Positions 11,524-31,700 of a DNA stretch of 64,000 bases are shown piece by piece. The notes below the pieces were generated by a model that ran no database searches, was not told the DNA's origin, and worked only from the letters and a program-made list of their open reading frames with translations. The stretch comes from an uncultured Verrucomicrobiae bacterium (GTDB lineage: Bacteria > Verrucomicrobiota > Verrucomicrobiia > Chthoniobacterales > UBA10450). The stretch lies in the NCBI GenBank assembly GCA_963815455.1, contig CAWFGO010000001.1, positions 1,671,602-1,735,601 on the forward strand, read 5' to 3'. The position numbers and the translations under genes are program-made. The first letter of the stretch is position 1, and the number at the start of each line of letters is the position of its first letter.

Positions 11524-12469
11524 CTAGCCATTGGCGCCGGTGCCCATTGCTCCAGTAGCGTGGGCGTTATTCTGTATGTCTTTGAGGTAGAGCCTCTTTG
11601 GCGGTAGTGGCGCAGGCCGGTCGCACGAAACCTGGCTGGACGGAACCCAACCGGGGCTTCCACCTGGCGGACGAAAGTAATACCAACGCATACCGTTCTT
11701 CTCCTGCGTATTCGTGAAAACAACCCTGTCACCAGGGCACCCCGCCTACCTGGTGAATTCGTCGAAGGATCCGTATGAAGGGTGGCGGCATTAGCGCTCA
11801 CATAAATGAAACCCCGATCGCCGTCGCGCACGTTTTTGCAGCAGTCGCGACACCACACATGCAGTTGCCAATCGACGTTGAATCCTCCAGGAATCGTTTC
11901 GTGTCCCGAGTTTGAAAACCCTCCAGGGATCGTTTCGTGTCCCGAATTTGCAGCGAGTTCCCGGTAGGGAACATGAAACTGGGTGCCCAGGGCCATGGCA
12001 AGTCCGGCGAACGGGTTCATGCCCGGGGTCGACGACGACCGGACACCTTGCATTCGGCAGCCGGGCCCCCGATGCGGCTGAACTGAATCGTGGCTGTGGT
12101 TAGCGGGCGGATCATGAGCCAAATCTGATCTTTTTCCCGTCGGCCATCCACGGCAATATCGAAGGTGTCCGGGGTCACCGTGTGCATGAAGATGCAGCCG
12201 TCACTTTCAACAAAGGCACGGGGACGGCTAGTGATTTGGGCATTGCCCTTGCCGCTGATCTGTCCGGCATCGTTTATCGTGAACTCCAGTTCACAGTCCG
12301 CGAAATCCTTGTAAACATTGCCTTCGCCGAAAAGGTGCAGCGTTCCCGACCAATGGGTATCGGCCAACGCCGGCGAACGCCCGAACGCAAAGATCGCAAG
12401 CGCGAACGCGATCAGGCTTCGATTGAAGGCGCTCGATGCGTAGCGGGTGAAGAAGCTGGCGGACGCCAT
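11524..12469 (-). CDS. Secreted Cys-containing protein with C-terminal SH3b-like domain, paralog 1 (frameshifted)
   Basis: Signal peptide ending PALA; C-terminal ATLHTDPSTNSP...RVVFTNT..NGMRWYY..PGWVPSSQV resembles a bacterial SH3 domain; near-identical to 12540-13463. Confidence 0.6.
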
Positions 12470-12539
12470 GGGTAAATCACTGCAGCCTATCGGCCTGTTG
12501 AACTTTTATCTCGCCTGCTGAAAAGATTTGCGTTACCTA

Positions 12540-13463
12540 TTAGCCGTTGGCCGCGGAAGTCATTGTCGTGGTGAGCTCTACCGCAGCCTTTAATATCTGG
12601 AAGATGTAGGGTTTTCCCAGCCGGTTTTGGAGGGGGCTGGTGGCAAGAGACTTGATCGGAGGGAACCCAACCAGGGGTTCCACCCGGCGCAATAACGTAA
12701 TGCCCAACGCGTACCGTTCTTCTGCAGCGTATTCGTGAAAACAACCCTGGCGCCCCGCGGCTCGCCACCAAGACTCGGCGAATCCGCGGACGGGTCCTGG
12801 TGACGTCTCGCGCCGTCAGCGCTCACCCACATGCTCCCCCGATCGCCGTCGCGCACGCTCACGCTTTTGCAGCAGTCGAGGCAATACACAACCAGGTTCC
12901 AAACCACGATAAACCCTCCAGTGAGCGTTTCGTGCCCCGAATTTAAACAACCTTCTACGCCTGTGTAGCTAACGTTCCGCGGCAACGAGCCGGTAGGGAG
13001 CATGAAACTTGGTGCCCAGGGCCATGGCAAGTCCGGCGAACGGGTTCATGCCCGGGGTCGACGACTGACCGGACACCTTGCATTCGGCAGCCGGGCCCCC
13101 GATGCGGCTGAACTGAATCGTGGCCGTGGCCCGCGTGCTGATTTTTATCCAAATCTCGCCTTTCTCTCGCCGGCCCTCGACTGCAATATCGAAGGTGTCC
13201 GGGGTCACCGTGTGCATAAAGATGCAGCCGTCGCTTTCAACAAAGGCACGGGAACGCGGTGAGATATATGCTTTGCCCGTGCCCCTGATCCGTCCCGCAT
13301 CGTCAATCGTGAACCACAGGGCGCTGTCCGAAAAGTCCGCGTAAACGTTTCCTTCGCCGAAAAGCTGTAGGCTTCCCGACCAATGGGTATCGGCCAACGC
13401 CGGCGAACATCCGAGCCTACAGGCAATGGCTACCCAACAGATGAAAGCGAGATGGCGTTTCAT
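12540..13463 (-). CDS. Secreted Cys-containing protein with C-terminal SH3b-like domain, paralog 2 (frameshifted)
   Basis: Shares SPALADTHWSG, AFVESDGCIFMHTVTPDTFDIAV, FSRIGGPAAECKVSG, GMNPFAGLAMALGT, DCCK and PGWVPS with paralog 1. Confidence 0.6.
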
Positions 13464-13577
13464 TATTCCGGGCATGTGTGCCCCCTCCTGCGGATTGAGA
13501 CGCTCACGGACCACATGCAGTTCCAATCCCTAAAATCCACACTGGCCTTAATAACCGGCGCGTGTCTCATGATCATG

Positions 13578-16449: not shown

Positions 16450-16761
16450 GTGGATTCCAGAAGTGTGCAAACGGAAGAAATCAGTTCCCCGCGTTTGGCT
16501 GCCATAGCGCGCCGCGTTTGCTGGTGGGAACCGGCTGCCACGACCCTTGAAAACACGCCGTTGTTTCTCTGCCGGATCATGGCGCTGGGAACGTGGGAGG
16601 ACATCTGCATTGCTCTGGACCACTATGGCATGGATGCTTTTCGCAAAGCATTGCAAAATGCGCCTCCCGGCCTGTTCGACCCCCGTTCGTGGTATTACTG
16701 GCACCACCGCTTGAAGCTTCTGCCTGTTCCATCCTTACAGCACCGCGTCATCCCCGCATGA
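16450..16761 (+). CDS. Small putative antitoxin partner of the AbiEii-like nucleotidyltransferase
   Basis: ARRVCWWE..RIMALGTWED..APPGLFDPRSWYYWH; ATGA overlap with the downstream toxin gene. Confidence 0.7.
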   Translation: MDSRSVQTEEISSPRLAAIARRVCWWEPAATTLENTPLFLCRIMALGTWEDICIALDHYGMDAFRKALQNAPPGLFDPRSWYYWHHRLKLLPVPSLQHRVIPA

Positions 16762-17408
16762 AGCCACGGCTGGATGTTTTGCTTCCCCAGGGGAGGCATC
16801 TGTGGTCTGAGCTTTCCGAATTACCTGAGCATTTCGTTTTGTATGGTGGAACGGCGATTGCCTTGCGCCTTGGTGGAAGACAATCCGTCGATTTCGATTT
16901 TTTCACGAACCAACCCATTTCGGCAGACCTTCTAAGCCGGAGTCTGCCATTTCTCCGCGGAGCCGAACTGATTCAGTCCGAATCGAACACGTCAACGTTC
17001 ACCATCCGGCGTGATGGAGAAATCAAAGTTTCATTTTTCGGCGGACTCACCATCGGCCGTGTTGCCGATCCCGACCGTTGCGAAGATAACGGAGTCTTCA
17101 TCGCGTCGCTTCCCGATCTCGCAGCGCAAAAGGTAAAAGTGGTTCTGGCACGCGCGGAGGCGAAGGATTACGTCGACATTTATGCGTTGTTGAAAGCCGG
17201 CATCACTTTGCCCACGGCTCTGGGAGCGGCCAAAGCGCTGTATCCCGAATTCAACCCGGTGCTGTCCCTGAAAGCCCTCGCATATTACGGCGAGCCGGGC
17301 CTTGCCGCGATGCCGGTGGAGATTCGCGAATTTCTCACAGCAGCAAGCGCAAAAGTAGAATCGGTCGAGACGATTTCTAAAATCGCACCCGGCATCAGTC
17401 CGTCGTGA
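16758..17408 (+). CDS. Nucleotidyltransferase, AbiEii/AbiGii (type IV TA) toxin family
   Basis: LYGGTAIALRLGGRQSVDFDFF, KVSFF, DLAAQK...RAEAKDYVDI. Confidence 0.88.
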   Translation: MKPRLDVLLPQGRHLWSELSELPEHFVLYGGTAIALRLGGRQSVDFDFFTNQPISADLLSRSLPFLRGAELIQSESNTSTFTIRRDGEIKVSFFGGLTIGRVADPDRCEDNGVFIASLPDLAAQKVKVVLARAEAKDYVDIYALLKAGITLPTALGAAKALYPEFNPVLSLKALAYYGEPGLAAMPVEIREFLTAASAKVESVETISKIAPGISPS

Positions 17409-17663: not shown

Positions 17664-18398
17664 ATGAAAATTCTTCAGGGAGTGCTTTGGCAGTTGGAAA
17701 AACTGCTTGCCGGCTCTTCTCTCGTGCCCGACCAGCCATTCTTCGATCCGGCTGATTTCGCCTGGACCCGTTTTTTGGAGGAGAATTGGCGGACTATCCG
17801 GACCGAATTGGACGAGGTGATGCGACACCGGAAGGATCTTCCCAATTTTCAGGATATTTCCCCCGACCAGAAGGCCCTTTCTCAGGATGAAGGCTGGAAA
17901 ACGTATTTCTTTTGCGCTTACGGCTTTGAGGCAAAAGGAAACTGCCAGCGATGCCCCGAGACCGCGCGCCTTCTCAAACAGATTCCGGGAATGAAAACGG
18001 CTTTTTTTTCCATACTCGCGCCGGGCAAGCATTTGCCGGAACATCGCGGGCCTTACAAGGGAGTGCTGCGGTATCATCTGGGCCTGATTATTCCGCAGCC
18101 GGAGATCGATTGCGGGATTCGGGTGGCCGATGAGACCCGGCATTGGCAGGAAGGCAAGAGCCTCGTGTTCGACGATACCTACCGGCACGAAGCATGGAAC
18201 AAAACGAGCCGCGACCGCGTGGTATTGTTCATGGATTTTGTGCGACCTTTGCGGTTCCCCGCGTCGTTGTTGAATTGGATTTTGCTTAACGCTATTGCCC
18301 TCTCTCCGCTCGTTCTCGGGGCGAAGGGAAATTATCTGGCTTGGGAAAAGCGATTTGAAAAGGTCGTCAACGCGGAAAAAGAGGCGAAAGCCGCTTAA
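17664..18398 (+). CDS. Aspartyl/asparaginyl beta-hydroxylase family (LpxO-like) Fe/2-oxoglutarate lipid hydroxylase
   Basis: WKTYF, CPETA, AFFSILAPGKHLPEHRGPYKGVLRYHLGL, FDDTYRHEAWN, RVVLFMD. Confidence 0.9.
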   Translation: MKILQGVLWQLEKLLAGSSLVPDQPFFDPADFAWTRFLEENWRTIRTELDEVMRHRKDLPNFQDISPDQKALSQDEGWKTYFFCAYGFEAKGNCQRCPETARLLKQIPGMKTAFFSILAPGKHLPEHRGPYKGVLRYHLGLIIPQPEIDCGIRVADETRHWQEGKSLVFDDTYRHEAWNKTSRDRVVLFMDFVRPLRFPASLLNWILLNAIALSPLVLGAKGNYLAWEKRFEKVVNAEKEAKAA

Positions 18399-18471
18399 AT
18401 CCAATCCGGCCACGGGCAATTGTGCCGTTTTGTTTGTTCCGCGGGCCGGGAAAAAAGTCGCGACTAAAGGC

Positions 18472-18500
18472 TTGTCGAGGCTGCCTGGGGCCGCTAAGCT
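18472..18500 (+). promoter_or_regulatory. Putative sigma70 promoter of the spt operon
   Basis: TTGTCG-N17-TAAGCT about 50 bp upstream of ATG 18549; AAGGA RBS. Confidence 0.45.
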
Positions 18501-18548
18501 AGCTGCCCCGATATGGAAACCGGCGACATCAGCGTCCGGCCATAAGGA

Positions 18549-19799
18549 ATGAACGACGATCCCGCAAAGTTAAGCCTGAGCAATTTCCTCGCTGGAGAAA
18601 CCAGCGATCCCCTCCAGGCTCCCCCCAGTTTCACCAAATGGATGCGCGTCGGCGCGTGGGCGGTGAAGCTTTACGAACCAGAGCTGTTGGCCAGCGCCGA
18701 TGCTCGAACAACGCTGAATTACGATGGCAAGCGGCTTCCGGTCATCAATCTTTGCTCTTATAATTACCTCGGCCTGGCCAATCATCCCGAGGTCATTGCC
18801 GCCGCGCAAGAAGCGCTAAAGACCCACGGCATGGGCGCGTGCGGTTCGCCGATGCTTTCCGGAATGACCGATCTTCATCGGCAACTTGAACAGCGCATGG
18901 CGAAATTTCTGAATCGGGAAGACGCCATGCTTTTCAACAGCGGGTTCGGTGGCGCGCTGGGCACCATTTCCGGTCTGCTCCGCAAGACCGATGTCGCTCT
19001 GCTCGATAATCGATCCCATCTTAGCCTGCGCGATGGCGCCACCCTTTCGCGTTGTCGCATGGAAAAGTTCGAGCATAACGATCCCGAATCGCTCGAAGGA
19101 GCGCTGACGCGTCAAACGGGAAAGAGAAAACTTGTCATCATCGAGGGTATTTACTCGATGGACGGCGATTTCGGTAATCTCAAGCCGTTGATAGACGTGG
19201 CCACTGCTTACGGGGCAAAGGTTTTCATTGACGAAGCGCATTCGATCCTGGGATGCGGCGAGCACGGTCGGGGTGCGGCGGAACACTTCGGAGTGGAGGA
19301 CAGTCTGCCACTTGTTTACGGCACGTTTTCGAAGGCATTCGGCGCGGTTGGCGGATTTGTAGCCGGCTCGAAAGAGACGCTGCAATATCTGCGGTTCTAT
19401 TCTCATCCGTATGTTTATTCCTGCGCCTTGCCGCCGGTGGTCGTGGCGGCGATTTTGAAGGCCCTTGAAATCGCGACGACGCAACCTGAGTTACGCAAGA
19501 AACTGTGGGAGAACGCGGATTATTTTCATGCGCAACTGCGCGGTCTTGGCATCGACACCGGCAACTCGACCACCTACATCATGCCGCTGGTGATCGGCGA
19601 TCGTGAGCGAATGTATCGCCTCGGTCACGAACTTCGCCGGCGCGGGCTATGGGTGGCGCCGGTCGATTATCCGGCGGTGCCAAACGACCGCATTTGCTTC
19701 CGCGCCTGTGTAACCGCGAAACATACCCGCGCCGATATCGATGAGGCGCTCAACATCCTGCAGGACACGCTCGTTCCCGCGGTGTTGCAGAACGCCTGA
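18549..19799 (+). CDS. spt: Alpha-oxoamine synthase family PLP enzyme, probable serine palmitoyltransferase
   Basis: SYNYLGLA, GACGS, EGIYSMDGD, DEAHS, GTFSKAFG (PLP lysine); directly upstream of a CerS-like gene, no bio genes nearby. Confidence 0.7.
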   Translation: MNDDPAKLSLSNFLAGETSDPLQAPPSFTKWMRVGAWAVKLYEPELLASADARTTLNYDGKRLPVINLCSYNYLGLANHPEVIAAAQEALKTHGMGACGSPMLSGMTDLHRQLEQRMAKFLNREDAMLFNSGFGGALGTISGLLRKTDVALLDNRSHLSLRDGATLSRCRMEKFEHNDPESLEGALTRQTGKRKLVIIEGIYSMDGDFGNLKPLIDVATAYGAKVFIDEAHSILGCGEHGRGAAEHFGVEDSLPLVYGTFSKAFGAVGGFVAGSKETLQYLRFYSHPYVYSCALPPVVVAAILKALEIATTQPELRKKLWENADYFHAQLRGLGIDTGNSTTYIMPLVIGDRERMYRLGHELRRRGLWVAPVDYPAVPNDRICFRACVTAKHTRADIDEALNILQDTLVPAVLQNA

Positions 19800-19813
19800 G
19801 CCGCTATCCCGAG

Positions 19814-20950
19814 GTGTCCAGGCTTGAAGTTTCGCGGGTCGATTCCCGCAAAGAACGCGATGTTTTCATCGAGTTCCCATGGCGCGTCTATGCGAACGAT
19901 CCGGCCTGGGTCCCGCCATTAATCATCGAGCGCCGGCAGTTTCTCGATCGCAAGAAACATCCGTTCTACAAACATGGCGACGCTGCCTTGTTTCTGGCGC
20001 GGCGCGATGGAAAAGTCGCCGGCCGGATCATGGCCAGCGACGATCCCAATTACAACGCCTTGCACCAATCGAACACCGGGTGTTTCGGGCTTTTTGAAAG
20101 CATTGACGATGTCGATGTTGCGACGGCGTTATTCGATGCCGCCCAGGACTGGCTCCGGCGCAAAGGTCGGACCGAGGTGATTGGACCGATCGATTACTCG
20201 ACAAACTACGTTTGCGGCTTGTTGATCGAGGGCTTCGAGCATCCGCCCACGCTGTTGACCGCGCACAACCCGCGGTTTTACCCGGCGCTAATCGAGAAGT
20301 GCGGCTTTCGGAAGGAAATCGATTTTTTCGCCTGGTGGTTTAGCGATGCTTCCGCGGCCGCTCGTCGTCTGCGCAGGTTGGCTGTTCGCTTAAAGAGTCG
20401 CGCGGCATTCACGATCCGTCACGGCGACATCAAGAACTTAAAGCGCGAAAGCGCAATCCTTCGGGGTATATATAATGAGGCCTGGCGCGACAACTGGGGT
20501 TTTGTGCCCTTTACCGAGACGGAGTTCGATCATCTCACCGCCGAAATGAAACCGGTGCTTCGCGCCGATTTTACCGCCGTGGCCGAGATGAACGGCGAGG
20601 CCGTGGGGTTCATCATCGGATTGCCCGACATCAATGTGGCTTTGCACAGGATCAACGGACGGCTCACCCGTTTCGGTCTGCCCATTGGCCTGGCGAAATT
20701 GTTGTATCACAAATCGCGGCTGCGAAAGGCGCGGCTCATCGCCATGGGTGTGCGGCCGGAGTTCCGCAAGCTCGGCGTCGCGGAAATGCTGGTGCTGCGC
20801 GTGATGGAGGAAGGAATGCTCAAGGCCGGCTTCGCGGCCGAGCTGAGCATGACCCTGGAAGACAACGCACTGGTAAACCGTTTTATCGAAGCGATCGGCG
20901 CTAAAAAATACAAGACGTATCGGATTTACCGGCGCGAAGTGTCTTCTTAG
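19814..20950 (+). CDS. cerS: Tandem-GNAT acyltransferase, probable bacterial ceramide synthase
   Basis: FPWRVY..DPAWVPPL, HPFY, GRI, FGLFE, GP, GLLIEGF, YNEAW.DNWGFVP, LPDIN, AELS..LEDN, KTYRIY are signatures of the bCerS family. Confidence 0.72.
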   Translation: MSRLEVSRVDSRKERDVFIEFPWRVYANDPAWVPPLIIERRQFLDRKKHPFYKHGDAALFLARRDGKVAGRIMASDDPNYNALHQSNTGCFGLFESIDDVDVATALFDAAQDWLRRKGRTEVIGPIDYSTNYVCGLLIEGFEHPPTLLTAHNPRFYPALIEKCGFRKEIDFFAWWFSDASAAARRLRRLAVRLKSRAAFTIRHGDIKNLKRESAILRGIYNEAWRDNWGFVPFTETEFDHLTAEMKPVLRADFTAVAEMNGEAVGFIIGLPDINVALHRINGRLTRFGLPIGLAKLLYHKSRLRKARLIAMGVRPEFRKLGVAEMLVLRVMEEGMLKAGFAAELSMTLEDNALVNRFIEAIGAKKYKTYRIYRREVSS

Positions 20951-20968
20951 TGATGACCGAACGAATCG

Positions 20969-22111
20969 ATGACTCAGAATAGGTTGCGAGCAATGCCACA
21001 TTTTCTTTTTTTGATGTCAGATACGGGCGGTGGACATCGCGCCGCGTGCTGCGCTATCGAGGCCGCTCTGCAGGATCGCCATCGAGGCGAGTTTACGGTC
21101 GAACTGGTCGATTTGTGGAGGGACTACACTCCTTTCCCCCTTAACATGATGCCGCAGATCTATTCGCGGTGGATCAACATGCATCCATCGAGTTATTCCG
21201 CCCATTTTTGGGTCGGGGATCGGCTGTTTTTGAATCAATCGTGGAGCCAGCTCTATTGTCGACAGATGTACTCGCGTATGAAACGCCTCTACGCCGAGCA
21301 CCCCGCCGATGTTATCGTCTGTGTCCATTCCGTCTTTGTGCGCCCGGCGGTCTACGCACTGCGCAGAGCGCGCATCGACAAGCCGTTTATCACGGTAATC
21401 ACCGATTATGCATTGCCCTCCGTCCTTTGGTACGATGCCAAGGTGGATCATTGCCTGGTACCCACGGAACCCGCCTTCCAGCGCGGCCTGTCGCTTGGGA
21501 TGAAAACGGCACAAATGCTTCTGACTGGGGCACCGGTACACCCCAAATTTGCCAAGCTCAGTATTTCCAAACTCGATGCGCGCGCGCAGTTAGGGTGGAG
21601 GCCTGACAAACGTGTTATCCTGGTCGTCGGCGGCGCCGACGGGATGGGACCACTCATCTCGACGGCGCGCGCGATCGACGGACGGCAGTTGGATTGCCAG
21701 TTGGTCGTCGTTGCTGGACACAACCAGGCGTTGAAAGCCGCCTTGGAAAATGTGTCTTGGAGAGGGCCTGTCCGTATCTACGGTTTTGTAGACAATATGC
21801 ATGTGTTTATGCGCGCGTCCGACCTTCTGATTACCAAAGCTGGCCCGGCGACGATTAGCGAGGCTGCTCTGGTGGGCTTGCCAATGGTGCTGAACAGCGC
21901 AATCAAATTCCAGGAATCGCCAAACGTCGACTATGTAGTGGAACACAGCGCTGGAGTGTACGCTGTCGGGCCGAAGAGAACCGCGGACAGTGTGCAGGGG
22001 TTGCTCGAAAATGGGGCAGTGGCGCTGGAGAAGCTCGCTAGTGGCGCCGCGCGGCTCGCGCAACCGGATGCAATCTGGAAGATTGCCGACGAAATCTGGG
22101 CCCATGCCTGA
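20969..22111 (+). CDS. MGDG-synthase/UgtP-like glycosyltransferase (GT28)
   Basis: SDTGGGHRAA, TVITDY, GAPVHPKF, VGGADG, ITKAGPATISEA, QESPN. Confidence 0.9.
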   Translation: MTQNRLRAMPHFLFLMSDTGGGHRAACCAIEAALQDRHRGEFTVELVDLWRDYTPFPLNMMPQIYSRWINMHPSSYSAHFWVGDRLFLNQSWSQLYCRQMYSRMKRLYAEHPADVIVCVHSVFVRPAVYALRRARIDKPFITVITDYALPSVLWYDAKVDHCLVPTEPAFQRGLSLGMKTAQMLLTGAPVHPKFAKLSISKLDARAQLGWRPDKRVILVVGGADGMGPLISTARAIDGRQLDCQLVVVAGHNQALKAALENVSWRGPVRIYGFVDNMHVFMRASDLLITKAGPATISEAALVGLPMVLNSAIKFQESPNVDYVVEHSAGVYAVGPKRTADSVQGLLENGAVALEKLASGAARLAQPDAIWKIADEIWAHA

Positions 22112-23393
22112 GTGCGCCCCAAGAGTGAACGGCGTTCTGATTCTTGCGGATGAATCCGCTGAATGGAAAGTTGCGGGGCTACGCCAGCTCGATCGTTTGG
22201 CTCTTGCCTTGAATGATTACGTCAGTCGTAGCCAAGGAATTGACGTTCTTCCAGTCTGCGTCTGCTGGATCGGCAACAAATCGGGAGAGTCTTCCCGCCA
22301 GCCGCAAGATCGACGCCTTACGCATCTCATGATGAGTGACAATGTAGACGAATTCTTTATGCGAATGCGAGGGAACGACGCCTCTGCCTTGGTGGTCAGT
22401 ACGCGTCTCGTGCTTGCCCGAGATACCCTCGCGCAGGCTTTCGAAAAATCCCTTGTCGATCGAACAATGCCGATGTTGTTGATGCGCGGAGACGCACTCG
22501 CCGGTGAGGGCAATATTCAAGCCGATTCATCTCTTGTGCGCCGGCTCCGTGCAACGGAACTAATTGCTTCGCAACAGCCAGGAGACAAAACGAATCGAGA
22601 TTGGACTTATCTTCAAAGCCGTGAGGGCATCGCAATTGCGGAGAAACGTTTAATGCAAAATACCGGTAAGTCGCAGGATGGCTTTGCAGCCCGCTTCATA
22701 AATCGTCCGATCTCTCGCAGTGTCAGCAGGTGGCTTGTCCGCTTTCCTCTCTTGCCCAACCAATGGACACTGATGGTGACTGCAATACCGATTGCCGGAT
22801 CGATCCTCTTGATGCGAGGAGACTATCTTGGCTTCGCCTGTGGGGCGGTTCTCTTTCAACTCCACAGCGTGTTAGATGGATGTGATGGTGAAATCGCGCG
22901 CTTGAAATATCTCGAGTCAGAAAAAGGGAGAAGGCTCGATACAATTTGCGATCGGCTCGTCACATTGATTTTCGTTATTAGCATTGGCGTTGGTTTGTCC
23001 CGCCAGCCTGGGATTCCCGACACGCTGCGGTGGCTTTATCTGCTGGAAGCAGCGATCACGGCGCTCTTGATCGGTGTAAGTGAGTTCGTGTTAATGAGAG
23101 CTAAGGCAGATGAAGGCCACGGCCTCGGCGCAATAAAGGATGATCTGTACCCCCATTATGTGAGAGCAATCAGGAATTCCGGCGTGCTCCGTCTTGGTGC
23201 GGGTGTGACTTCGTTCTTTGTTGAAGTGACGAAACGCGACACCTACATCTTTGGTTTTATGGTGCTGGCACTCTGTGGGCGACCAACCTGGATTTTGCAT
23301 ATACTCGCTGTCTGCGCCTGCGCGATGATGCTTTTTACCCGTAGGAATTTGGCGCCTTCGTCTTCCCCTGCAGATCGGGCCCGCGTTCAATGA
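22104..23393 (+). CDS. CDP-alcohol phosphotransferase with degenerate N-terminal nucleotidyltransferase-like domain (copy 1)
   Basis: GKSQDG..NRPIS, PNQWT, LDGCDGEIARLKYLESEKGRRLDTICD. Confidence 0.88.
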   Translation: MPECAPRVNGVLILADESAEWKVAGLRQLDRLALALNDYVSRSQGIDVLPVCVCWIGNKSGESSRQPQDRRLTHLMMSDNVDEFFMRMRGNDASALVVSTRLVLARDTLAQAFEKSLVDRTMPMLLMRGDALAGEGNIQADSSLVRRLRATELIASQQPGDKTNRDWTYLQSREGIAIAEKRLMQNTGKSQDGFAARFINRPISRSVSRWLVRFPLLPNQWTLMVTAIPIAGSILLMRGDYLGFACGAVLFQLHSVLDGCDGEIARLKYLESEKGRRLDTICDRLVTLIFVISIGVGLSRQPGIPDTLRWLYLLEAAITALLIGVSEFVLMRAKADEGHGLGAIKDDLYPHYVRAIRNSGVLRLGAGVTSFFVEVTKRDTYIFGFMVLALCGRPTWILHILAVCACAMMLFTRRNLAPSSSPADRARVQ

Positions 23394-24619
23394 TCGAAGA
23401 AGATCATCGTGTGGATCGTGTTGTGATTCTGGCTGATGAGTCAGCCAATTGGAAGATCGCCGGATTGCGCCAGCTTGATCGGCTTGTGCTGGCGCTCGAT
23501 GAATTCGCCAAAACAATCGGAACGGCAGAAAAGATCGACATCTCCGTTTTTTGGAAGCCGGAGATTCCGCTTTCGGAGCGATGGTTACCGAAGGACCCGC
23601 GAATCGGGCGTGTTCGTTTGATCGAACCTTCCGGGTCGCCAGAACCGGACGCGCGCATTCTTGCTACCCGCTTGTTCGTGGGGCGAAATGCGTTGTCGAT
23701 CTTTCTTTCCACGACGGCCCCAGTGAAAGCCGAACAACCCATTGTTGATCCAACGTTAGGGTGGCGGCAATTTTTCGAGCAGTTCGAGAGAACATGTCGA
23801 AACGCGACCGCAGCGGAGGAAGAGCGTGGTTGGCGGTTTCTCGCGCAGCCGGCCGAGATTGTCGCCAGCGAAATGCTTTTTCTTCGCCACATGGGAAAGT
23901 CCCAGGACGGAATTGTATCCAAGTTTCTTAATCGACCGCTGGTGCGACCGATCACGCGTTGCCTGCTTAGATTTCCCATCAAACCCACGACCTGGACATT
24001 GTCGATGTTTGCGTTGCCACTCATTGCGTTCGCCTTTCTGCTGCGCGGAGATTACGCGGGCATTCTGGTTGGAGCAGCCATTTATCAACTCTTCAGCATG
24101 CTCGACAGCTGCGATGGAGAAATTGCGCGGGCAAAATATTTGGAATCAAAGCGGGGCGGACGAGTGGACGACTTCTGTGATATGATCGGCGGCTTTGTGT
24201 TCTTAACCGGTCTCGGATTTGGTCTCTCTCACTGGCATGGTTCAGCGTTTTATGCTGCCGAAGGGATTTTCTGCGTCGCGATAATTGCGGCCAATGAATT
24301 CCTATTAAGAATTTCGAAACCCGAAACCAACCTCGACCCAAGTCCGTTGGGACGGGCCTTGTATCCGCGCTATCGCCAGGTGATCCAGCAATCTGGTGTC
24401 TTGTTCCTGGGAGAAAATTTTGTCTGGTGTCTGCTGCAACTAACAAAGCGCGATGTCATGATTCTGTTTTTCCTCATTCTCGCGCTGGCCGGTCTCGCGC
24501 CGTGGATCCTTCACCTGTCGCTCGCCTTTGCCGCTGTGGGTCTACTTCTGGCCGGGATCACCCGGCTGAAAAGGCGCACCCACGTTCGCGGCATCGTTTC
24601 TTCGAGCTTGGAGCTGTAA
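23390..24619 (+). CDS. CDP-alcohol phosphotransferase (copy 2)
   Basis: LDSCDGEIARAKYLESKRGGRVDDFCD; shares ILADESA.WK.AGLRQLDRL.LAL and TKRD with copy 1; ATGA overlap. Confidence 0.88.
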   Translation: MIEEDHRVDRVVILADESANWKIAGLRQLDRLVLALDEFAKTIGTAEKIDISVFWKPEIPLSERWLPKDPRIGRVRLIEPSGSPEPDARILATRLFVGRNALSIFLSTTAPVKAEQPIVDPTLGWRQFFEQFERTCRNATAAEEERGWRFLAQPAEIVASEMLFLRHMGKSQDGIVSKFLNRPLVRPITRCLLRFPIKPTTWTLSMFALPLIAFAFLLRGDYAGILVGAAIYQLFSMLDSCDGEIARAKYLESKRGGRVDDFCDMIGGFVFLTGLGFGLSHWHGSAFYAAEGIFCVAIIAANEFLLRISKPETNLDPSPLGRALYPRYRQVIQQSGVLFLGENFVWCLLQLTKRDVMILFFLILALAGLAPWILHLSLAFAAVGLLLAGITRLKRRTHVRGIVSSSLEL

Positions 24620-25324
24620 GCATCTTTCAGCGTTGGCCAGCATCCCAAGTGTGTCGATATCCTGCCACCACGCGCCTCCAATATCAATTCCGCGGACCCG
24701 ATCGTCTGCCGCCATCAGCCGCACGCCGTCGGCCAGGCTGCAATCGCCATCCCGTTTCGCCCGCTCGAGGTAATCGAAAATGTCCACCGGGCAGACAAAA
24801 AGACCCGTGTCGATCGCGTCATAGGTCGCCAGGTTTTTCCCAATCGCGACGATGCGGTCGCCGCGCGTCTGTACTTTCATCGCGTCGTCGAGATCGAAAA
24901 TCGAATCGAGTTTCTTGTCGATCGCCAGATTAATCTGATTGAAATCTGAGGTCTCGATCAGAAGATCGACAATCGTCTGGTCGAAAAGATGATCGCTCAT
25001 CGAGAGCAGAAATGGCGCGGTGACATGGCGCGCCGCTGCGAGAAGGGAAATGCCGTTTTGTTTCTTCCAGTCGGGATTCTCGATCACGCGAAGCTGCATT
25101 TGCGGTGGAATCAATGGTCGCAGCCCCGCGATGAGCGATTCGCTCTCGAATCCAACAACCGCGTTCAAAACGGCAATTCCGCTCTTGGCCAGCGCCTCAA
25201 TCGTGTAAGAAATCAGTGGCCGGTCGAGAATGGGGGTGAGCGGTTTTGGAAGACTGCTCCTGGAACCACGCAGCCGCGAACCGGAGCCGGCCATTAGAAC
25301 TACCGCTTCGGACACCGTGTTCAT
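24542..25324 (-). CDS. Cytidylyltransferase of the IPCT/LicC (inositol-1-phosphate / phosphocholine) family
   Basis: LMAGSGSRL, PKPL, QNGISLL, MSDHLF, DLDDAMKV, IGKNL, DTGLF, WQDIDT. Confidence 0.85.
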   Translation of the reverse strand: MNTVSEAVVLMAGSGSRLRGSRSSLPKPLTPILDRPLISYTIEALAKSGIAVLNAVVGFESESLIAGLRPLIPPQMQLRVIENPDWKKQNGISLLAAARHVTAPFLLSMSDHLFDQTIVDLLIETSDFNQINLAIDKKLDSIFDLDDAMKVQTRGDRIVAIGKNLATYDAIDTGLFVCPVDIFDYLERAKRDGDCSLADGVRLMAADDRVRGIDIGGAWWQDIDTLGMLANAERCLQLQARRNDAANVGAPFQPGDPGQK

Positions 25325-26124
25325 ATCCCGTAGTATTTTTTGAGTCCCCAGATGCGAACGCGTTGGGGGAGGAATCGAAAAATCAGGGGCGCAATTCTGG
25401 ATTGAAACGCGTCGCCAACGGTGATGCGCGGCGGAGGATCGATCGGCCTCGATTATTTCCAGAACGCGTTGCGCGACCAGGTCGGCCTTGGGCGCGGCCT
25501 TCATATTGCGTTCGACGGCGTTCCAGACCTTTTGGACTTTCGCGTCGAGGCGCGCGTCCTGGGCGGCGGTCCTGGTTACGGCATCATTGAAGTCTGTGGA
25601 AATATCCGCGGGTTGAAGATCGACAATGCGCACCGCGTCTCCCAGTTCGAGCTGGGTCGTCATGGTGTAGGCGGCCATGGCCGCTTTGCCCGCGTTGTAA
25701 GCCGCCATGAACGGCACCGGAAGACGCGACGCGAGCGAAGTCACGTTGATGATCAACCCGCTGCCGCGCTCGTGCATCGCGCGCAACGCGAGCTGCATCA
25801 AATGCACATGACCAACGCACAAAATCTGAAATTGCTCCGTGATTTCCGGGACGGAAAGAGATTCGGCCGGTCCAAAATGTCCGGAGCCGGCATTGTTGAT
25901 CACGACGTCAAAGTGGCCCGCCTGGGCGAGCGCGGTGCCAAACGCTTCGTCAATTGAGTGCGGATGAGCCAAGTCGAGTTGGACTGGATGCATGCGCGTG
26001 CATGTTGGGAAAACTTTTTTGGGTCGCGCGAAGTGCCCCATACTTCATGACCGCGAGCAAGCAGCGCGTGCGCAGTGGCAAGGCCGATTCCGGAACTCGC
26101 GCCCGTTAGAAACACACGCTTCAT
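25321..26124 (-). CDS. SDR-family NAD(P)-dependent oxidoreductase (frameshifts near 26015 and 25435)
   Basis: TGASSGIG, INNAG, NVTS, YNAGK. Confidence 0.88.
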
Positions 26125-26128
26125 CAGA

Positions 26129-27644
26129 TCAGGTCCTGGAATACCAACGGTGATAGCTCCATCCAATGCCAAACGTCACCAGGAATGCCGCCGCGGCTGT
26201 AATTTGCCCGACGATTCCGTCCAGCAGTGCGCGACAGACAAGCCCTGGGACAATTGCAATTAGTGCGGTAATGATTGGCGGCGCGATGTCACGCCATGGG
26301 TTTGGCCATTGAAACACCAGGCGCAAGGCAGCGTATCGCAAAATGCCCTGCACGACATAGGGGATCAGAATGCCGAACGCTGCGCCGATCATGCCGAAGC
26401 GAGGAATGAGCCACAAATTCGCACCGATGGCGATCACGCATGTGATCGAGGAATGCAGAAGATTTATTAGCGGACGCTGCACCAGGATTACTGTTTCGCC
26501 TAAACCGATGAACGCGTTAATCGCGCAGGCCACGGCCACGATGGAGAGCCAGGGAGCGCCCTGGCGAAATGCAGGGCCGTAGATCAGGAGAATCGTTCCT
26601 CCGGCAAAGACCAGCACGGCCACAATGGGCAGCAAGATCCAAAGCATCCATTGCGCGAGGCGGCCGTAGGTTGCGGCAGCGCGTTGGTGGTCGCCAAGGG
26701 CCGTGATTCCGGCAACCACAGGCGTAAAAATTGGATAAAAAGCCTGATTCACCCTTCGAGAGCCGCTGGCGATGTCAATAACCGCGCTGTAAATACCGAC
26801 CGTGGTTAGAGTGACGCCGGGCGCGCGCCCAATAAACCACGCCAGCATGATAAGATCCAAACGAAGAATGAACGCATTTAGAAATTGGTAGGCGCCGATA
26901 GGGGCCGCGTAACCAAGCAGGCGCCGCGCTTCGCGGCGGAGGGAGAAGCCATCACGATGCTTGGGAACTTGTCGAAACAAGCTCGAAGCCAACGCCAGGG
27001 CCACGATCCCAGACGCGACCATCCCAATGATTGCGGCAAGCTGCGGCGCGGAGTTCTTCAAGCCGACGGCGAGCGCAATCAGAAAGGCAAGCGTGGTTGC
27101 AACAGAGTCCGCCATGCCGCGCGAGAAAATGTCATGTTGCATCACCTTCATCCCTCGCGAAACCGAAGTGCTGATGCGATACAATGCAATTGCCGGAATC
27201 GCACAGAGAAGCGCCGAGAGCGCCGAAACCATTTGCGGCTCCAGATGTAAATGCCCGCGCAGCAGACGGAGTCCGACGATCAAAACCAAGGCAATGAACA
27301 GTGGAAAAAGCGACGGCAAGTCCGATAGCGAGCCGGAACAAAGCTCGGGCCCGCGCTTGATCGCCAACTGCATTCGCGCGGGCGATGAATGTGGTAATTG
27401 CGTCATCCAGACCAAAGATGCCGACCTTGGATAGAAGATCGGTAGTCGCCCACGCAACCGAGAAGATCCCGAGAGCGCTCGGCCCGAGCAGACGCGCCAC
27501 CAGGAATGTGAAGATGCCGCGCAAGTTCGACGTCAGCAGCGCGACCGTGTTCAAAAGCGCGCCGCGCTTCAGCTCGGCCCCGGCCTCGTCGACGTGCCGG
27601 GCAAGATCGACAGATTCGGACGCGGTGGAAACAACGGTCTCCAT
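26129..27644 (-). CDS. MOP/Wzx-type oligosaccharide flippase (frameshift near 27310)
   Basis: ARLLGPSALGIF, RLDLIML, VGIYSA, NLWLIPRFGMIGAA; many TM helices. Confidence 0.85.
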
Positions 27645-27650
27645 TGCGAC

Positions 27651-29162
27651 TTAACGATCGTCCCGATCGATCAGGTAGAGTGTCACGGAATTCTGTTCCC
27701 GGTATATGATTATGGAGCGCTTGAACACAGCCACCGGAATACGATGCCATCCCGGCGGCAGCGGCGCCTTTTCGTTATCAGCGTAAACGGCAACGGCGCC
27801 GGCTACAACCCCTGGCAGCTCGGATGCGGGCGGGATTTTGCTAAAGGTGACGAATCCGGGCGCGTACCACTCGACGTGACGTTGGACATTGTTGAAGAGC
27901 AAGACAACATCCTTGCGCCGATCAGCCGAGTACAACTCGGCCAGGTGGCGGACCAAACGCAATGACGGCGACTCGCGGCGGTGATTGTCGATGGCAAGAG
28001 GAATAACGACGCAGAGAATAAGCGCCGGCAACGCGACCGCGGACCAATTCCAAGGCCAGCGCATTTGCAAGAATCCCCGCAAAAGGGCGACCCAGAGCAG
28101 CGGAAAGATGATGAGGTAATATCGTTGCTCGGGAGAAAGGGAAATAAAGATGATGGCGACGTGCACGAGGGCCCACGGCGCATGAGCCCGCCAAAATTCA
28201 CCGTCGCCCAAACTTTGAACGCGGGAGAAATACGATGCCAAACCGGTGATCACGATCACGCTTCCGATTCCCAGCACCCAGGGAGATTCGAGAAAACCAA
28301 AACCGAGTCCGAACCATCCAAGAAGGTGGACAGCCAGGCGCGCGCCGAGGTATCGCAGGCTCCAATCTCCCGCCCCGATGTAAGTTCCCGGCTTGTCTAA
28401 ACGCCACTGCCATTGCTGATAGGCGAGATGCGGATACACGCTCCAAAGCGACATTTTCGGGTCCAATCGCCACTGCATGTAAGACATCGGCAATAGCCAG
28501 ACCAGACAGCCCGCAATCAGCAGGGCCATCGTCAAGATCGACATCTTCATCGTGGCGCGCCCGCGCCACAGCGCGGCAATCAGAATCACCAGAACAACAA
28601 GGATCAACTGCGGCCGCGCTCCCGCTGCCGTCGCGCCTAACAAGGCCGCGGCCGGTAAAGCAGCGCGACGTTGGCGTTTGAGAAAATAGAGCGTGGCCAG
28701 AATTTCTGCGCTGACCAAACCGGCCGCGAGACTATCGGTCAAAACTTTTGTCGCTGTCATCCACACCGCCGGCGTAATTGCGAGGCAGCCCGCGACCCAC
28801 CAAGCGAAGCGTTCGTTGAACTGCAGCCGGATAATGAGGAACCACACCGCGATGAAGAGGGCGCCGCCGATGGCAGAAACAAAATGTAGCGAAAGATCCG
28901 GGCCGGCCCCGAAAACCGTGTCCCCGATCCATCCCAAAAAAATGAACAGGGGATAACCGGGTGGATGGGGCTGATGCTTCCACAGATTGAAATCGTGGAT
29001 GCCCATGGCGAATTGCACGGAGTCGTGCACGTCGAGTTCCGGCGACCGCGTCAGGAAGTAGAGCGCGAAAGTGGAGAGAAAAACCAACGTCGTTTTAATG
29101 ACCGTGCTCGAACCGGGCGCGTCCGTGTCGGATGTAATGTTGTTCACGTTGAGCCGGACCAT
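27651..29162 (-). CDS. GT-C-like multipass membrane protein (DUF2723/PMT-like)
   Basis: DSVQFA, HQPHPPGYPLF, GARPQ, EQRYYL; multipass; start codon uncertain. Confidence 0.65.
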   Translation of the reverse strand: MVRLNVNNITSDTDAPGSSTVIKTTLVFLSTFALYFLTRSPELDVHDSVQFAMGIHDFNLWKHQPHPPGYPLFIFLGWIGDTVFGAGPDLSLHFVSAIGGALFIAVWFLIIRLQFNERFAWWVAGCLAITPAVWMTATKVLTDSLAAGLVSAEILATLYFLKRQRRAALPAAALLGATAAGARPQLILVVLVILIAALWRGRATMKMSILTMALLIAGCLVWLLPMSYMQWRLDPKMSLWSVYPHLAYQQWQWRLDKPGTYIGAGDWSLRYLGARLAVHLLGWFGLGFGFLESPWVLGIGSVIVITGLASYFSRVQSLGDGEFWRAHAPWALVHVAIIFISLSPEQRYYLIIFPLLWVALLRGFLQMRWPWNWSAVALPALILCVVIPLAIDNHRRESPSLRLVRHLAELYSADRRKDVVLLFNNVQRHVEWYAPGFVTFSKIPPASELPGVVAGAVAVYADNEKAPLPPGWHRIPVAVFKRSIIIYREQNSVTLYLIDRDDR

Positions 29163-29179
29163 GTGGTACTTTTGCCGGG

Positions 29180-30070
29180 ATGATGTCGATCTTGAAGATA
29201 TCGATTTTGGCGGTTTTGCTGATGCTGCTCGTGTTCGTGCTGTGGTCTCAGCGCCGCCGCCGTCAAATCCGCTTTATTCGCGAGACATTGGCAAGGGACC
29301 CGGTGCCGGTGAGTGGGCTTCGGGTGATCGTTTCGCTCTCGAGCTTGCCCGATCGCATCGTGAATCTTAAACCAACGCTCGATTGTTTGGTCAACCAAAC
29401 GCGAGCGCCGGACGAAATTGTGCTCGCTCTCCCGGAGTTTTCGATCCGCCAGCAGAAGCGTTATGTTATTCCGGATAATCTCGCGTCCTATTCACGGCTT
29501 CGGATCTTGCGATCCGATAAGGATTGGGGACCGGCAACGAAATTTATTCCCGTAGTGCAGGAGGAGCTCGCTGCGGGACGGCGCGATACCCTGATCATGG
29601 TCGTGGACGATGATCGGGTTTATCCCCGGGACGCCCTCGAAACCTATCTTCATTACCATCGACAACTGCCGGACGCGGCGCTTTGCTTTCGCGGCGCACC
29701 AATGCCGCGCAGCTTGAAGTGGACGAAACCGAAACTTTGTCTGGCCGACCGGATCCGGGAGCCCAGGAAGATGGCGGTGATCATGGGTTGCGGTAGTTAC
29801 TTGATCCAGCCCCGCTTCTTCGACGCTCAACTTTGGGATTATTCTACTGCGCCTCGGGCCGCGTTTTACATGGACGACATCTGGATAAGCGGATGCCTGG
29901 ATCGTCGCGGTGTCGAAAAATACGTCGTGCCGGCATCGGCCATGATGAGCACGGTTCGGCTGCAATCGGGCACCATGACTTTGGATGATGTTCCCAATGG
30001 CCGCCGTCAGAATAATAATGAGGTGGTGGCGTTTTTTCGCGATACCTGGAACGTTTTTTTGCCCTGCTAG
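29180..30070 (+). CDS. GT-A fold glycosyltransferase, membrane anchored
   Basis: IVSLSSLPDRI, NQTRAPDEI, DWGPATKFIP, VDDDRVY, DDIWISG. Confidence 0.8.
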   Translation: MMSILKISILAVLLMLLVFVLWSQRRRRQIRFIRETLARDPVPVSGLRVIVSLSSLPDRIVNLKPTLDCLVNQTRAPDEIVLALPEFSIRQQKRYVIPDNLASYSRLRILRSDKDWGPATKFIPVVQEELAAGRRDTLIMVVDDDRVYPRDALETYLHYHRQLPDAALCFRGAPMPRSLKWTKPKLCLADRIREPRKMAVIMGCGSYLIQPRFFDAQLWDYSTAPRAAFYMDDIWISGCLDRRGVEKYVVPASAMMSTVRLQSGTMTLDDVPNGRRQNNNEVVAFFRDTWNVFLPC

Positions 30071-30318: not shown

Positions 30319-30773
30319 ATGGCCAAGAAGACCAAACGAAAAATCGCGTATTCGAAGCTGCCGATGCAACGGCAGTTGAATCTGCAACATGAGGGCAGGC
30401 ACTTCGATCTTCGGCGAATTTTTGACGACCTGAATGAGCGCTATTTTCGCGGACGGCTGCGCAATTACAAAGTGATGTGGGGACGCCGGCGAAAACATCG
30501 GCCGCGCGAATATTTTGTTTTCGGCACGATCCAGGAAGAGGACCGCGTGATTCGAATCAATCCGATGCTCGATCAACCGTTCGTGCCGGCTTTGGTTTCT
30601 GCGCTACGTGCTTTATCACGAGATGCTGCATTCTGTCGTCCCGGATGAGCCCCTGGCTGGCGGCCGCCGCCGAGTTCACACGGAAGAGTTCAATCGCCGA
30701 GAGCGGAAGTTCCGTGGTTACTCAGCGCGCCCGGCGCTGGGAAGAAGAGAACCTCGCGCGCTTCCTGCGCTGA
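30319..30773 (+). CDS. SprT-like zinc metalloprotease domain protein (frameshifted)
   Basis: FDDLNERYF, IRINP.LD, LYHEMLH (HExxH), RRVHTEEF. Confidence 0.75.
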
Positions 30774-30931
30774 GTCCGCTCAGGGCCTTTCGGTCGCAGC
30801 TCGGACGCGTACCCCATCTCAGACGGCGAGAGGGTCGTCGCTACGTTCTTTTTGATCAGGTACCAGAGCGTTGTCGCGAGAAGCAGGGAGATCAACTTCG
30901 CGCGCCAATTGTTCAGGATCAGTTTCTTCAT
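30722..30931 (-). CDS. Short CdaR/YbbR-like membrane peptide (N-terminal TM only)
   Basis: MKKLILNNWRAKLISLLLATTLWYLI matches the typical CdaR N-terminus; overlaps the dacA 3' end. Confidence 0.55.
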   Translation of the reverse strand: MKKLILNNWRAKLISLLLATTLWYLIKKNVATTLSPSEMGYASELRPKGPERTQRRKRARFSSSQRRAR

Positions 30932-31700
30932 AGTCGCGGTGCAATAAAACTTCGGCGATGCGTTGACGAAATGTTTCCGGCGTAAAATCGCGCTCGATCC
31001 GCCGGCGGTGGCAAAGGGTAATCGCCCCGGTCTCTTCGGAGACAATGATGGCCACGGCGTCCGATTCCTCCGTGATCCCGAGCCCGGCCCGATGGCGCAG
31101 GCCCAGGCTTCGGTCCAGCGTTTCGCGCTGGCTGACCGGGAAAATGCACGCCGCCGCCGCGATGCGGCCATTGCGCACAATGACTCCGCCATCGTGCAGG
31201 GCCGCTTTGGGATGAAAGATCGACAGCATGAGCTCAACCGAAAGTTCGCCATCGATCGTCACACCGCTCTCTTCATAAACACGAATCGAAGTGTCGCGCT
31301 CGATTGCGATCAGGGCGCCGAATTGCTTGTTGGCCAGCTGGGTCACCGCTTCGGCCAGATCGTGGACAGTCTCGCGTTTCTCGCTGGTGAGGGAAAAGAT
31401 CGGATGGCCGCCCAGCTCGGCCAAGGCGCGCCGCAGTTCCGGTTGAAAAATGACCACCAGCGCGATGGCGAGGAAGACGGAAAAGCTTCGCAAAATCCAT
31501 CCGATCACGACGAGATTCAGCAAGGTCGAGATCAACGTGAGCGTCAGAAAAACGATGGCCATGCCGGTTAACACTTTTGCGCCACGGGTGCCGCGAAAAT
31601 AGAGGTAGCCGTAGTAGATCACCACGGTAAGCAGGATGATCTCGATGATGCTGCGCCAGCTGGTGAACCAAAGATCGATGAATTCCTGGATCATTTTCAT
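30819..31700 (-). CDS. dacA: Diadenylate cyclase CdaA/DacA
   Basis: Three TMs, VIFQPELRRAL, GALIAIER, LHDGG, GLRHRAGLG, VSEETG. Confidence 0.93.
   Translation of the reverse strand: MKMIQEFIDLWFTSWRSIIEIILLTVVIYYGYLYFRGTRGAKVLTGMAIVFLTLTLISTLLNLVVIGWILRSFSVFLAIALVVIFQPELRRALAELGGHPIFSLTSEKRETVHDLAEAVTQLANKQFGALIAIERDTSIRVYEESGVTIDGELSVELMLSIFHPKAALHDGGVIVRNGRIAAAACIFPVSQRETLDRSLGLRHRAGLGITEESDAVAIIVSEETGAITLCHRRRIERDFTPETFRQRIAEVLLHRDYEETDPEQLAREVDLPASRDNALVPDQKERSDDPLAV

Follow-up and report, generated by a model that had tools for sequence, protein, structure and literature searches.

A family-wide Chthoniobacterales gene cluster probably encoding an inositol-phosphate glycosphingolipid pathway, in its glycosyltransferase version

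What lipid is made by a gene cluster in which a pyridoxal phosphate (PLP)-dependent enzyme and an N-acyltransferase of sphingolipid type stand beside glycosyltransferases and CDP-alcohol phosphotransferases (CAPTs)? The question is raised by positions 17664 to 30070 of the window, a 64 kb stretch forming the end of contig C1 in the 3.6 Mb, 90% complete genome of an uncultured Verrucomicrobiae bacterium, where a first-pass annotation had read a probable sphingolipid synthesis and head-group cluster of a Verrucomicrobiota-like genome. Window open reading frames and profile scans located all eleven genes it had named, a hydroxylase, the PLP enzyme, a GNAT, a GT28 glycosyltransferase, two CAPTs (CAPT1 and CAPT2), a cytidylyltransferase, a short-chain dehydrogenase/reductase (SDR), a flippase, a GT-C and a GT-A protein, where it had placed them (Table 1), so that enzymes for both glyco- and phospho-head groups are present as it had proposed. 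The cluster is real and conserved: it represents a Chthoniobacterales locus shared across the family, here in the glycosyltransferase version, and probably, judging from its enzyme families, encodes an inositol-phosphate glycosphingolipid pathway.

Among named sequences, those closest to the PLP enzyme (80–87%) come from Chthoniobacterales, Spartobacteria and Ca. Udaeobacter metagenome-assembled genomes (MAGs); by this affinity the source genome is a member of the Udaeobacter family, and together with the family-wide gene distribution it bears out the Verrucomicrobiota origin. Across 151 genomes of the family, a tally that includes the unpublished genomes G002, G014 and G135, which enter no other result, a match to the N-acyltransferase bCerS was present in 137 (in four of these only as divergent copies, 27–32%), the SDR in 128, the inositol-phosphate synthase MIPS in 139 (PF01658) and a Lipid_DES desaturase (PF08557) in 69, making the sphingolipid-type cluster near-core in the family; the GT28 occurred in 2/151, each time directly after bCerS. 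Neither the Lipid_DES desaturase nor an FA2H-like hydroxylase was found in the window's genome. We then compared 99 loci around bCerS, one per genome, comprising the window and 98 relatives chosen for long contigs. The PLP enzyme lay within 6.7 kb of bCerS in 94 of them and the SDR was present in 95, which argues that the arrangement is not due to chance; two of the five loci without the PLP enzyme end at a contig edge, and the other three showed no spt in the 5–6.5 kb fetched. In a phylum-level sample of 201 genomes, the clade of this PLP enzyme was restricted to 2 genomes, solely of this family, and bCerS-like genes were found in 15.

Further features were seen in the relatives' loci. The locus also turns up, at 83–84% identity, in records titled Terriglobales, Limnocylindria and Dormiibacterota (L058, L075, L081), either as mis-binned contigs or by transfer, and in L040, L055 and L097 the place of the family bCerS is taken by a divergent bCerS (28%) encoded on the other strand. 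A Lipid_DES desaturase and an FA2H-like hydroxylase adjoin spt in most relatives (L075:8115-9146, L064:2-619), and two unassigned radical SAM families lie inside relatives' loci (L035:7627-8610, L086:13502-14638; 22/99 and 28/99), usually adjoining another long CAPT.

What is new at the window's locus is a swap directly after bCerS. The PLP enzyme is present in 94 loci. In 84 of these there is a stand-alone short CDP-alcohol transferase and bCerS is not followed by a glycosyltransferase; in the other ten, the window among them, a glycosyltransferase stands between bCerS and CAPT1 and the short transferase is missing. Searched genome-wide in these ten genomes, the short transferase gave weak partial matches only (≤33%, one of them at G019:C5:2178), the second short-transferase type (CAPT270) not being queried separately. 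The slot is filled by a GT2 in seven loci, a GT28 in two and a GT4 in one, and the GT2/GT28 state changed six times on a FastTree phylogeny of 83 loci, with 6/6 independent pairs concordant (p 0.03). The ten accompanying copies of CAPT1 group in a single clade (support 96; tree of 80 of 200 extracted transferases); CAPT1 itself matches Archaeoglobus AF2299 (E 4.8e-24), and the match extends into the N-terminal soluble domain. Where the usual version has the short transferase, this one has the glycosyltransferase and CAPT1 pair. The locus exists in three interchangeable versions.

The third version, observed in L121, L212, L217 and others, holds a HAD protein together with an NTP transferase, plus a class III aminotransferase (22/99 loci), a Gfo/Idh/MocA oxidoreductase and one protein without annotation, and its short transferase is mostly of a distinct type; this gene content suggests an amino-inositol head group.

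The identity of the PLP enzyme is central to any sphingolipid reading. Its alpha-oxoamine synthase (AOS) catalytic set (H157, D228, H231, K262 and R385) is complete and invariant, and the serine palmitoyltransferase (SPT) of S. multivorum ranked first in a PDB sequence search (270.8 bits, against 252.6 for Kbl and 191.8 for E. coli BioF). The same SPT came first, narrowly, in a fold search of the predicted model (pLDDT 95), with Kbl, ThAOS and HemA within a few orders of E-value, a ranking that lends weak support to Spt. In our main tree of 31 rows, built on labelled references of which three of the nine 'Spt' rows pass an Spt cut-off, and leaving out unlabelled rows (a 72-row tree including them finished only in quick mode), the family enzymes and their closest outside relatives form their own 100/100 clade, separate from Spt (100/99), Kbl (99/97), BioF and HemA; an approximately unbiased (AU) test did not reject a grouping of the family with Spt (p 0.37). 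The Spt-like assignment made at first pass thus stands in part, the enzyme lying outside the BioF and Kbl clades in this tree and outside the known Spt clade as well, and because of this position we infer Spt activity and serine specificity from gene context, not from phylogeny. Several points weigh against that assignment: the enzyme is not nested among known Spts, all NCBIfam Spt models scored below cut-off (324.8/640, 320.9/500 and 263.8/670), two Spt-conserved stretches are changed (GSP for GSR, GGALG for xNLG), and AOS substrate choice cannot be read from a few residues (PMC13692747). PMC11334938 treats a wider 'Spt-like' clade of similar kind, delimited by linkage, in which 22 marine Verrucomicrobiota MAGs are counted.

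Outside the family, the surroundings of sister-clade enzymes mostly failed as backing for a ceramide role and count against it: among 29 metagenome loci, many on short contigs, two lay near a bCerS-like gene, seven beside an acyl-AMP ligase and one beside a desaturase, a pattern compatible with a long acyl substrate, though not with a ceramide role across the clade. In L282, L286, L296 and L304, an acyl-AMP ligase or acyltransferase lies near the PLP enzyme, together with genes that we take by eye to be ketosynthase-, HMG-CoA-synthase- and enoyl-CoA hydratase-like; these loci possibly encode a branched long-chain-base pathway. The same broad, uncharacterised AOS group includes an enzyme of a Bacteroidales plasmid, beside a TetR gene (L166:4848-6083).

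The two enzymes expected to follow are better anchored. The GNAT, called CerS-like at first pass, proved to be a full-length bCerS/YghO homologue, with 33% identity to the N-acetyltransferase of a Sphingomonas spt locus, 36% to E. coli YghO and 33–40% across ~375 aa to four references taken from spt loci, a set without the Caulobacter protein itself; full-length homology and linkage to spt together place it in the bCerS family. YghO is listed with CC_1154 as the acyltransferase in PMC9386255, and the PDB holds no bCerS structure. The SDR, examined through an intact orthologue, carries the classical motifs TGASSGIG, NNAG and YxxxK, the same stretches being visible across the window's frames, and matches the KdsR model NF049977 over its full length. 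This was only the third-best model, and the score of 159.7 bits, far below the cut-off of 400, speaks against a KdsR identity. The gene nevertheless tracks bCerS, being present in 128/137 bCerS-positive genomes and missing from 14/14 bCerS-negative ones, a co-absence inflated by linkage on missing contigs, whereas a CerR-like match was obtained in only 2/151 genomes (one query, E≤1e-15, 31–32% identity). Because the SDR tracks bCerS while CerR is missing, it is reasonably likely to be the 3-keto reductase replacing CerR, as the first reading had guessed of a classical SDR. The CerR-like extended SDR of the window's genome (C1:26.3-27.2 kb) was rejected as the reductase; it is a weak match, rare in the family and set in a separate, unrelated sugar-modification cluster (G000:C1:26340-29034). 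The genome gave no AcpR match and only a distant ligase match (25%) for AasR, and the locus has no room for either. SDR-type 3-keto reductases have been demonstrated in Bacteroides (KDSR, PMC9278070) and for ketocapnine (PMC11211663), and Caulobacter CerR is described as periplasmic (PMC11087976).

For the head group, the best PDB matches of the cytidylyltransferase, whose motifs are DH, GK, DTG and WxDxD, are the A. fulgidus and T. maritima IPCT enzymes (E 4e-19 to 4e-17), far ahead of LicC (4.8e-6). An initial absence of MIPS by PF07994 (0/1 and 0/151 genomes) was discarded as a false negative, the control for that model having overlooked Corynebacterium and PF01658 having recovered the gene. 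With MIPS at C2:628.4-629.5 kb, the window's genome holds the gene set of the 'alternative' CDP-inositol route, namely MIPS, an IPCT-like NTP transferase and a CDP-alcohol transferase. A hand tally of the 46 genomes assembled in no more than 30 contigs placed MIPS 31 kb or less from the SDR in 32, and in the MIPS surroundings that were fetched the gene runs divergently from a block comprising two TolC-like genes, a membrane fusion protein (MFP), a LolCE-like permease and an ATPase. MIPS and this TolC-MFP-ABC block, a candidate exporter, belong to the locus in most relatives; the window's genome has the block at C2:622-629 kb, with one TolC-like call made by reading alone, without a model match. 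Roseomonas CpgC/CpgD-like references, assigned from gene context, had no match in the window's genome, where no TagD-type enzyme scored above cut-off and the BT_1523-type PIP synthase model stayed at 22.7 against 350 (NF052561), an AUR1-like synthase not being searched. Given the IPCT matches, the family-wide MIPS and the lack of CpgC/CpgD-like matches, inositol fits better than phosphoglycerate, and the CDP-activated donor is likely CDP-inositol. Of the two analogies drawn at first pass, the inositol-type one is strengthened and the Caulobacter phosphoglycerate one fits less well. Rhodothermus offers a precedent for CDP-inositol as lipid head-group donor, as described in PMC4587543, and the route is presented as proposed but unconfirmed in Bacteroidota in PMC9246714.

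Taken from families, motifs and gene distributions, the whole route would run as follows and has a marginally better than even chance of being right in the form of a glycosyl-ceramide capped with inositol-phosphate. The PLP enzyme would join serine and a long acyl thioester into a 3-keto long-chain base, whose ketone would be reduced by the cytoplasmic SDR in CerR's stead and to which bCerS would attach the N-acyl chain, in either order. The AspH-family enzyme would 2-hydroxylate an acyl chain, as presumed of FA2H in most relatives, and the MGD1-like GT28 would transfer a sugar onto the ceramide C1 hydroxyl. MIPS, encoded on contig C2, and the IPCT-like enzyme would supply CDP-inositol, from which CAPT1 would move inositol-phosphate to the sugar, with CAPT2 adding a further unit; in the usual version, the short transferase would place inositol-phosphate directly onto ceramide. 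Finally, the GT-A enzyme would add an amino sugar in the cytoplasm, the Wzx flippase would flip the lipid, the GT-C protein would add an outside sugar and the TolC-MFP-ABC system would export the product.

The backbone is very likely of ceramide type, because a bCerS homologue adjoins the PLP enzyme in 94/99 loci, relatives add Lipid_DES and FA2H-like enzymes and the best structural-database match is SPT. That the PLP enzyme should be BioF or Kbl, with an unrelated glycan cluster around it, is highly improbable: its highest raw NCBIfam score is indeed that of the BioF model (347), the best tree links its clade weakly to Kbl (74/67) and a grouping with BioF reached p 0.058 in the AU test, but the BioF score is below the cut-off of 426 and true Spts score 321–334 on the same model, the enzyme likewise stays below the Kbl cut-off and outside both clades, without biotin or threonine context, a separate Kbl with typical motifs sits elsewhere in the genome and falls in the Kbl clade, BioB was not found in the 90% complete genome, and the linkage to bCerS is fixed. 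The phylogenetic check against Spt, BioF and Kbl proposed at first pass has been run, and the grouping with BioF or Kbl that would have refuted the reading was not found. A backbone other than serine ceramide, built on another amino acid (a 1-deoxy or sulfonolipid-like amide) or replaced by a glycosyl-diacylglycerol anchoring an inositol-phosphate polymer, appears quite unlikely. The separate PLP clade with its altered active-site residues, the frequent occurrence of sister enzymes in acyl-AMP-ligase/ketosynthase-type loci without bCerS, and the diacylglycerol specificity of MGD1 and BgsA/Dgs would favour it, whereas across the 99 loci the head-group genes are interleaved with the PLP enzyme and bCerS, the short transferase usually sits between these two, suiting a product with a free C1 hydroxyl, and relatives hold the Lipid_DES desaturase and FA2H within the same block.

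If the backbone is ceramide, the CDP-activated unit could still be glycerol-phosphate, phosphoglycerate or phosphocholine. COG1213 substrates vary, and three further points tell against inositol: the top structural match of CpgD is also IPCT and yet its substrate is phosphoglycerate, as described in PMC12275187; AF2299, the best CAPT match, binds CDP-glycerol (PMC4634129); and MIPS lies on a contig separate from the cluster in the window's genome. With MIPS near-core across the family and in most cases adjoining the cluster, and with CpgC/CpgD-like, TagD and LicC evidence as weak as reported above, such a unit is improbable. The order of assembly is less settled. The slot GT28 is strikingly near plant MGD1 (E 2.9e-65, PDB 4WYI) and the slot GT4 is nearest to BgsA/Dgs, and because both are thus closest to enzymes acting on a lipid backbone hydroxyl, and in view of the slot swap described above, placement of the sugar first and of inositol-phosphate afterwards by CAPT1 is somewhat favoured. 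That MGD1 acts on diacylglycerol weighs against this order, and we know of no GT28 shown to glycosylate ceramide, no search aimed at this having been made. BgsB-type GT4s do have a ceramide-using homologue, AgcT, according to bioRxiv 10.1101/2023.05.23.541633. In the opposite order, CAPT1 would place inositol-phosphate on ceramide and the glycosyltransferase would then decorate inositol, as in plant and fungal glycosyl inositol phosphorylceramides (GIPCs) and mannosylated ones (MIPCs). CAPT1 replaces the short transferase as cleanly as the glycosyltransferase does, and the gene pattern by itself gives no order; this alternative is nonetheless unlikely, given the affinities of the slot enzymes, the position of CAPT1 as a CAPT2 paralogue belonging to the AF2299/DIPPS group, whose acceptors are polar, and the constant co-occurrence of CAPT1 and glycosyltransferase that it would leave unexplained.

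Beyond this core, the hydroxylated ceramide proposed at first pass is upheld only in part: the hydroxylase is present and plausibly acts on ceramide, without statistical support after correction for kinship. The enzyme scores 291.6 on the OlsC model (cut-off 450) and 153.2 on LpxO (cut-off 500), no OlsB-type acyltransferase was found in the genome, and lipid A stands against ceramide as an alternative substrate, LpxC and the lipid A pathway being present. It occurs in 8/94 loci and FA2H in 52/94, never together (0/8), an exclusion that by independent pairs is not significant (p ~0.5) and also tells against the proposal; replacement of FA2H was rejected on that ground. The flippase is present in 58/99 loci, and the GT-C gene in 8/9 loci with a GT2 or GT28 in the slot against 16/85 others (median p 0.06). 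The GT-A enzyme, found in 30/99 loci, has one N-terminal hydrophobic helix, and its profile and fold matches place the PmHS2 and KfiA GlcNAc transferases first; a GT64/GINT1-like identity was rejected, EXTL2 ranking 49th, and a protein atlas returned generic GT2 clusters only.

By analogy, the window's cluster would work like the Caulobacter ceramide pathway (PMC11324152, PMC9393093) joined to a CDP-inositol module. With the Spt-bCerS-CerR system of Caulobacter and Rhodobacteria, which includes AcpR/AasR as described in PMC11087976 and PMC9386255, it shares a clustered Spt-like enzyme and bCerS/YghO with flippase and head-group genes nearby; in contrast, its PLP enzyme lies outside the Spt clade, a classical SDR stands in a locus without CerR, acyl carrier protein or acyl-ACP synthetase, and its genome has a single LptF/LptG pair. 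Bacteroides KDSR BT_0972 (PMC9278070; NF049977) is likewise a classical SDR of ~266 aa with TGxxxGxG and YxxxK and a full-length model match, but is reported as unclustered with spt, while the window's SDR is clustered with it and scores far below the cut-off. The putative 'alternative' cluster of Phocaeicola vulgatus and Prevotella (PMC9246714) and the Rhodothermus IPCT/BEPIS pair (PMC4587543) have in common with it MIPS, an NTP transferase, a CDP-alcohol transferase and a CDP-inositol donor, putative here; as those sources describe them, they differ in that here spt and bcerS are linked, two or three transferases occur, the window's version has no HAD, and the glycosyltransferase and CAPT1 stand for the short transferase. 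Caulobacter CpgABCD, as described in PMC9393093, PMC12275187 and PMC11324152, also sets a COG1213 cytidylyltransferase and a CDP-alcohol transferase beside ceramide genes, whereas the window's locus lacks the ceramide kinase and CpgC, has AF2299/DIPPS-like transferases and belongs to a family in which MIPS is linked. Archaeoglobus AF2299 and IPCT/DIPPS (PDB 4O6M, 4MND), the best structural-database matches of the transferases and cytidylyltransferase, join soluble substrates, unlike the window's enzymes, which sit in a lipid cluster. The slot after bCerS is filled by families of lipid-hydroxyl glycosyltransferases, such as those of plant MGD1 (GT28) and bacterial AgcT/BgsB (GT4). Our literature search, its coverage leaving out most subscription journals, found nothing on sphingolipids in Chthoniobacterales or Udaeobacter.

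The eleven genes form two converging blocks (Table 1), with within-block spacing ranging from a small overlap to 18 bp, except for a 150 bp gap between the hydroxylase and the PLP enzyme. The SDR reading is broken across three frames and that of the flippase across two. Single bases at 25443, 25996, 26004 and 27296 are absent from close relatives' contigs, all from one soil study, 85–99% alike and from other strains than the window's; the flippase frameshift corresponds to the extra base at 27296. Relatives' SDRs are almost all stop-free, and further conserved genes, a YegS/DAGK and an LptF/G gene, are split in the same assembly. Since relatives' contigs lack the extra bases and other conserved genes are also split, assembly error is likelier than true mutation. 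A genome-wide frameshift rate drawn from 34 genes was discarded, having given 2 and overlooked known cases. At position 20158, relatives' contigs show a one-base difference that leaves the bCerS frame unaffected.

Table 1. Genes of the cluster, with positions in the 64 kb window
Predicted product	Position	Strand	Basis or remark
Fe/2-oxoglutarate lipid 2-hydroxylase, AspH/OlsC/LpxO family, putative acyl-chain hydroxylase	17664..18398	+	PF05118, 196 bits
Alpha-oxoamine synthase of family-specific clade, putative serine palmitoyltransferase	18549..19799	+	S. multivorum SPT top PDB match, by sequence and fold
bCerS/YghO-family GNAT N-acyltransferase	19814..20950	+	Full-length homology
MGD1-like GT28 lipid glycosyltransferase, putative ceramide C1-OH glycosyltransferase	20969..22111	+	Plant MGD1 match
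CAPT1, AF2299/DIPPS-like CDP-alcohol phosphotransferase, specific to glycosyltransferase version	22104..23393	+	Four-Asp motif intact
CAPT2, family-wide long CDP-alcohol phosphotransferase	23390..24619	+	PF01066; motif intact; 35% to CAPT1
IPCT-like (COG1213) cytidylyltransferase, putative CDP-inositol synthase	24542..25324	-	IPCT PDB matches
Classical SDR, KdsR-like, putative 3-keto reductase	25321..26124	-	Two frameshifts in assembly
Wzx/MOP-type flippase	26129..27644	-	PF01943 on both pieces; one frameshift in assembly
GT-C fold membrane glycosyltransferase (PMT_2)	27651..29162	-	PF13231, 40 bits
Membrane-anchored GT-A, KfiA/heparosan-synthase GlcNAc-transferase-like	29180..30070	+	Profile and fold matches to PmHS2 and KfiA

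Around the cluster, an AbiEii-type toxin (PF08843) and a small upstream gene (16450-17408, + strand), a probable type IV toxin-antitoxin pair, directly precede the hydroxylase and were not seen at relatives' loci. The frameshifted YegS/DAGK-family kinase (~2259-3117, - strand) lies 14.5 kb upstream of the locus and may be a kinase of ceramides or sphingoids, or may simply be part of the flanking context; the YegS/DAGK cluster recurs upstream of the sphingolipid genes in 12/80 relatives' loci, next to a gene that we take to be WaaA-like. A VWA-domain protein with a Pro-Thr repeat (12017-15497, - strand) was also noted, together with a pair of small proteins that resemble each other and have signal-like N-termini (12017-12469 and 12969-13526). 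The right border (30319-31700) holds a frameshifted HExxH protein without a Pfam match, presumably SprT-like, and a CdaA diadenylate cyclase, as in a same-genus relative.

Put at its widest, our proposal is that a family ranking among the most abundant bacterial ones in soil may make complex inositol-phosphate sphingolipids by means of an undescribed Spt clade, an SDR that is clustered with it and replaces CerR, a route through CDP-inositol, a TolC-type exporter and cassette-swapped head groups, the window possibly encoding a glycosyl-ceramide with an inositol-phosphate cap, an inverted GIPC, through a GT28 ceramide glycosyltransferase; this full picture is tentative, its chances falling somewhat short of even. 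Cells of the Udaeobacter family are abundant in soil and uncultured, and a near-core sphingolipid pathway, if true, would change the assumed source of soil ceramides and inositol lipids and give a biomarker for the lineage. The locus also supplies soluble, expressible candidates for a long-branch Spt clade labelled BioF/Kbl in databases, for a CerR-replacing reductase and for the proposed CDP-inositol route to inositol sphingolipids, and the clean exchange of the short transferase for a glycosyltransferase with its own transferase predicts testable acceptor specificities.

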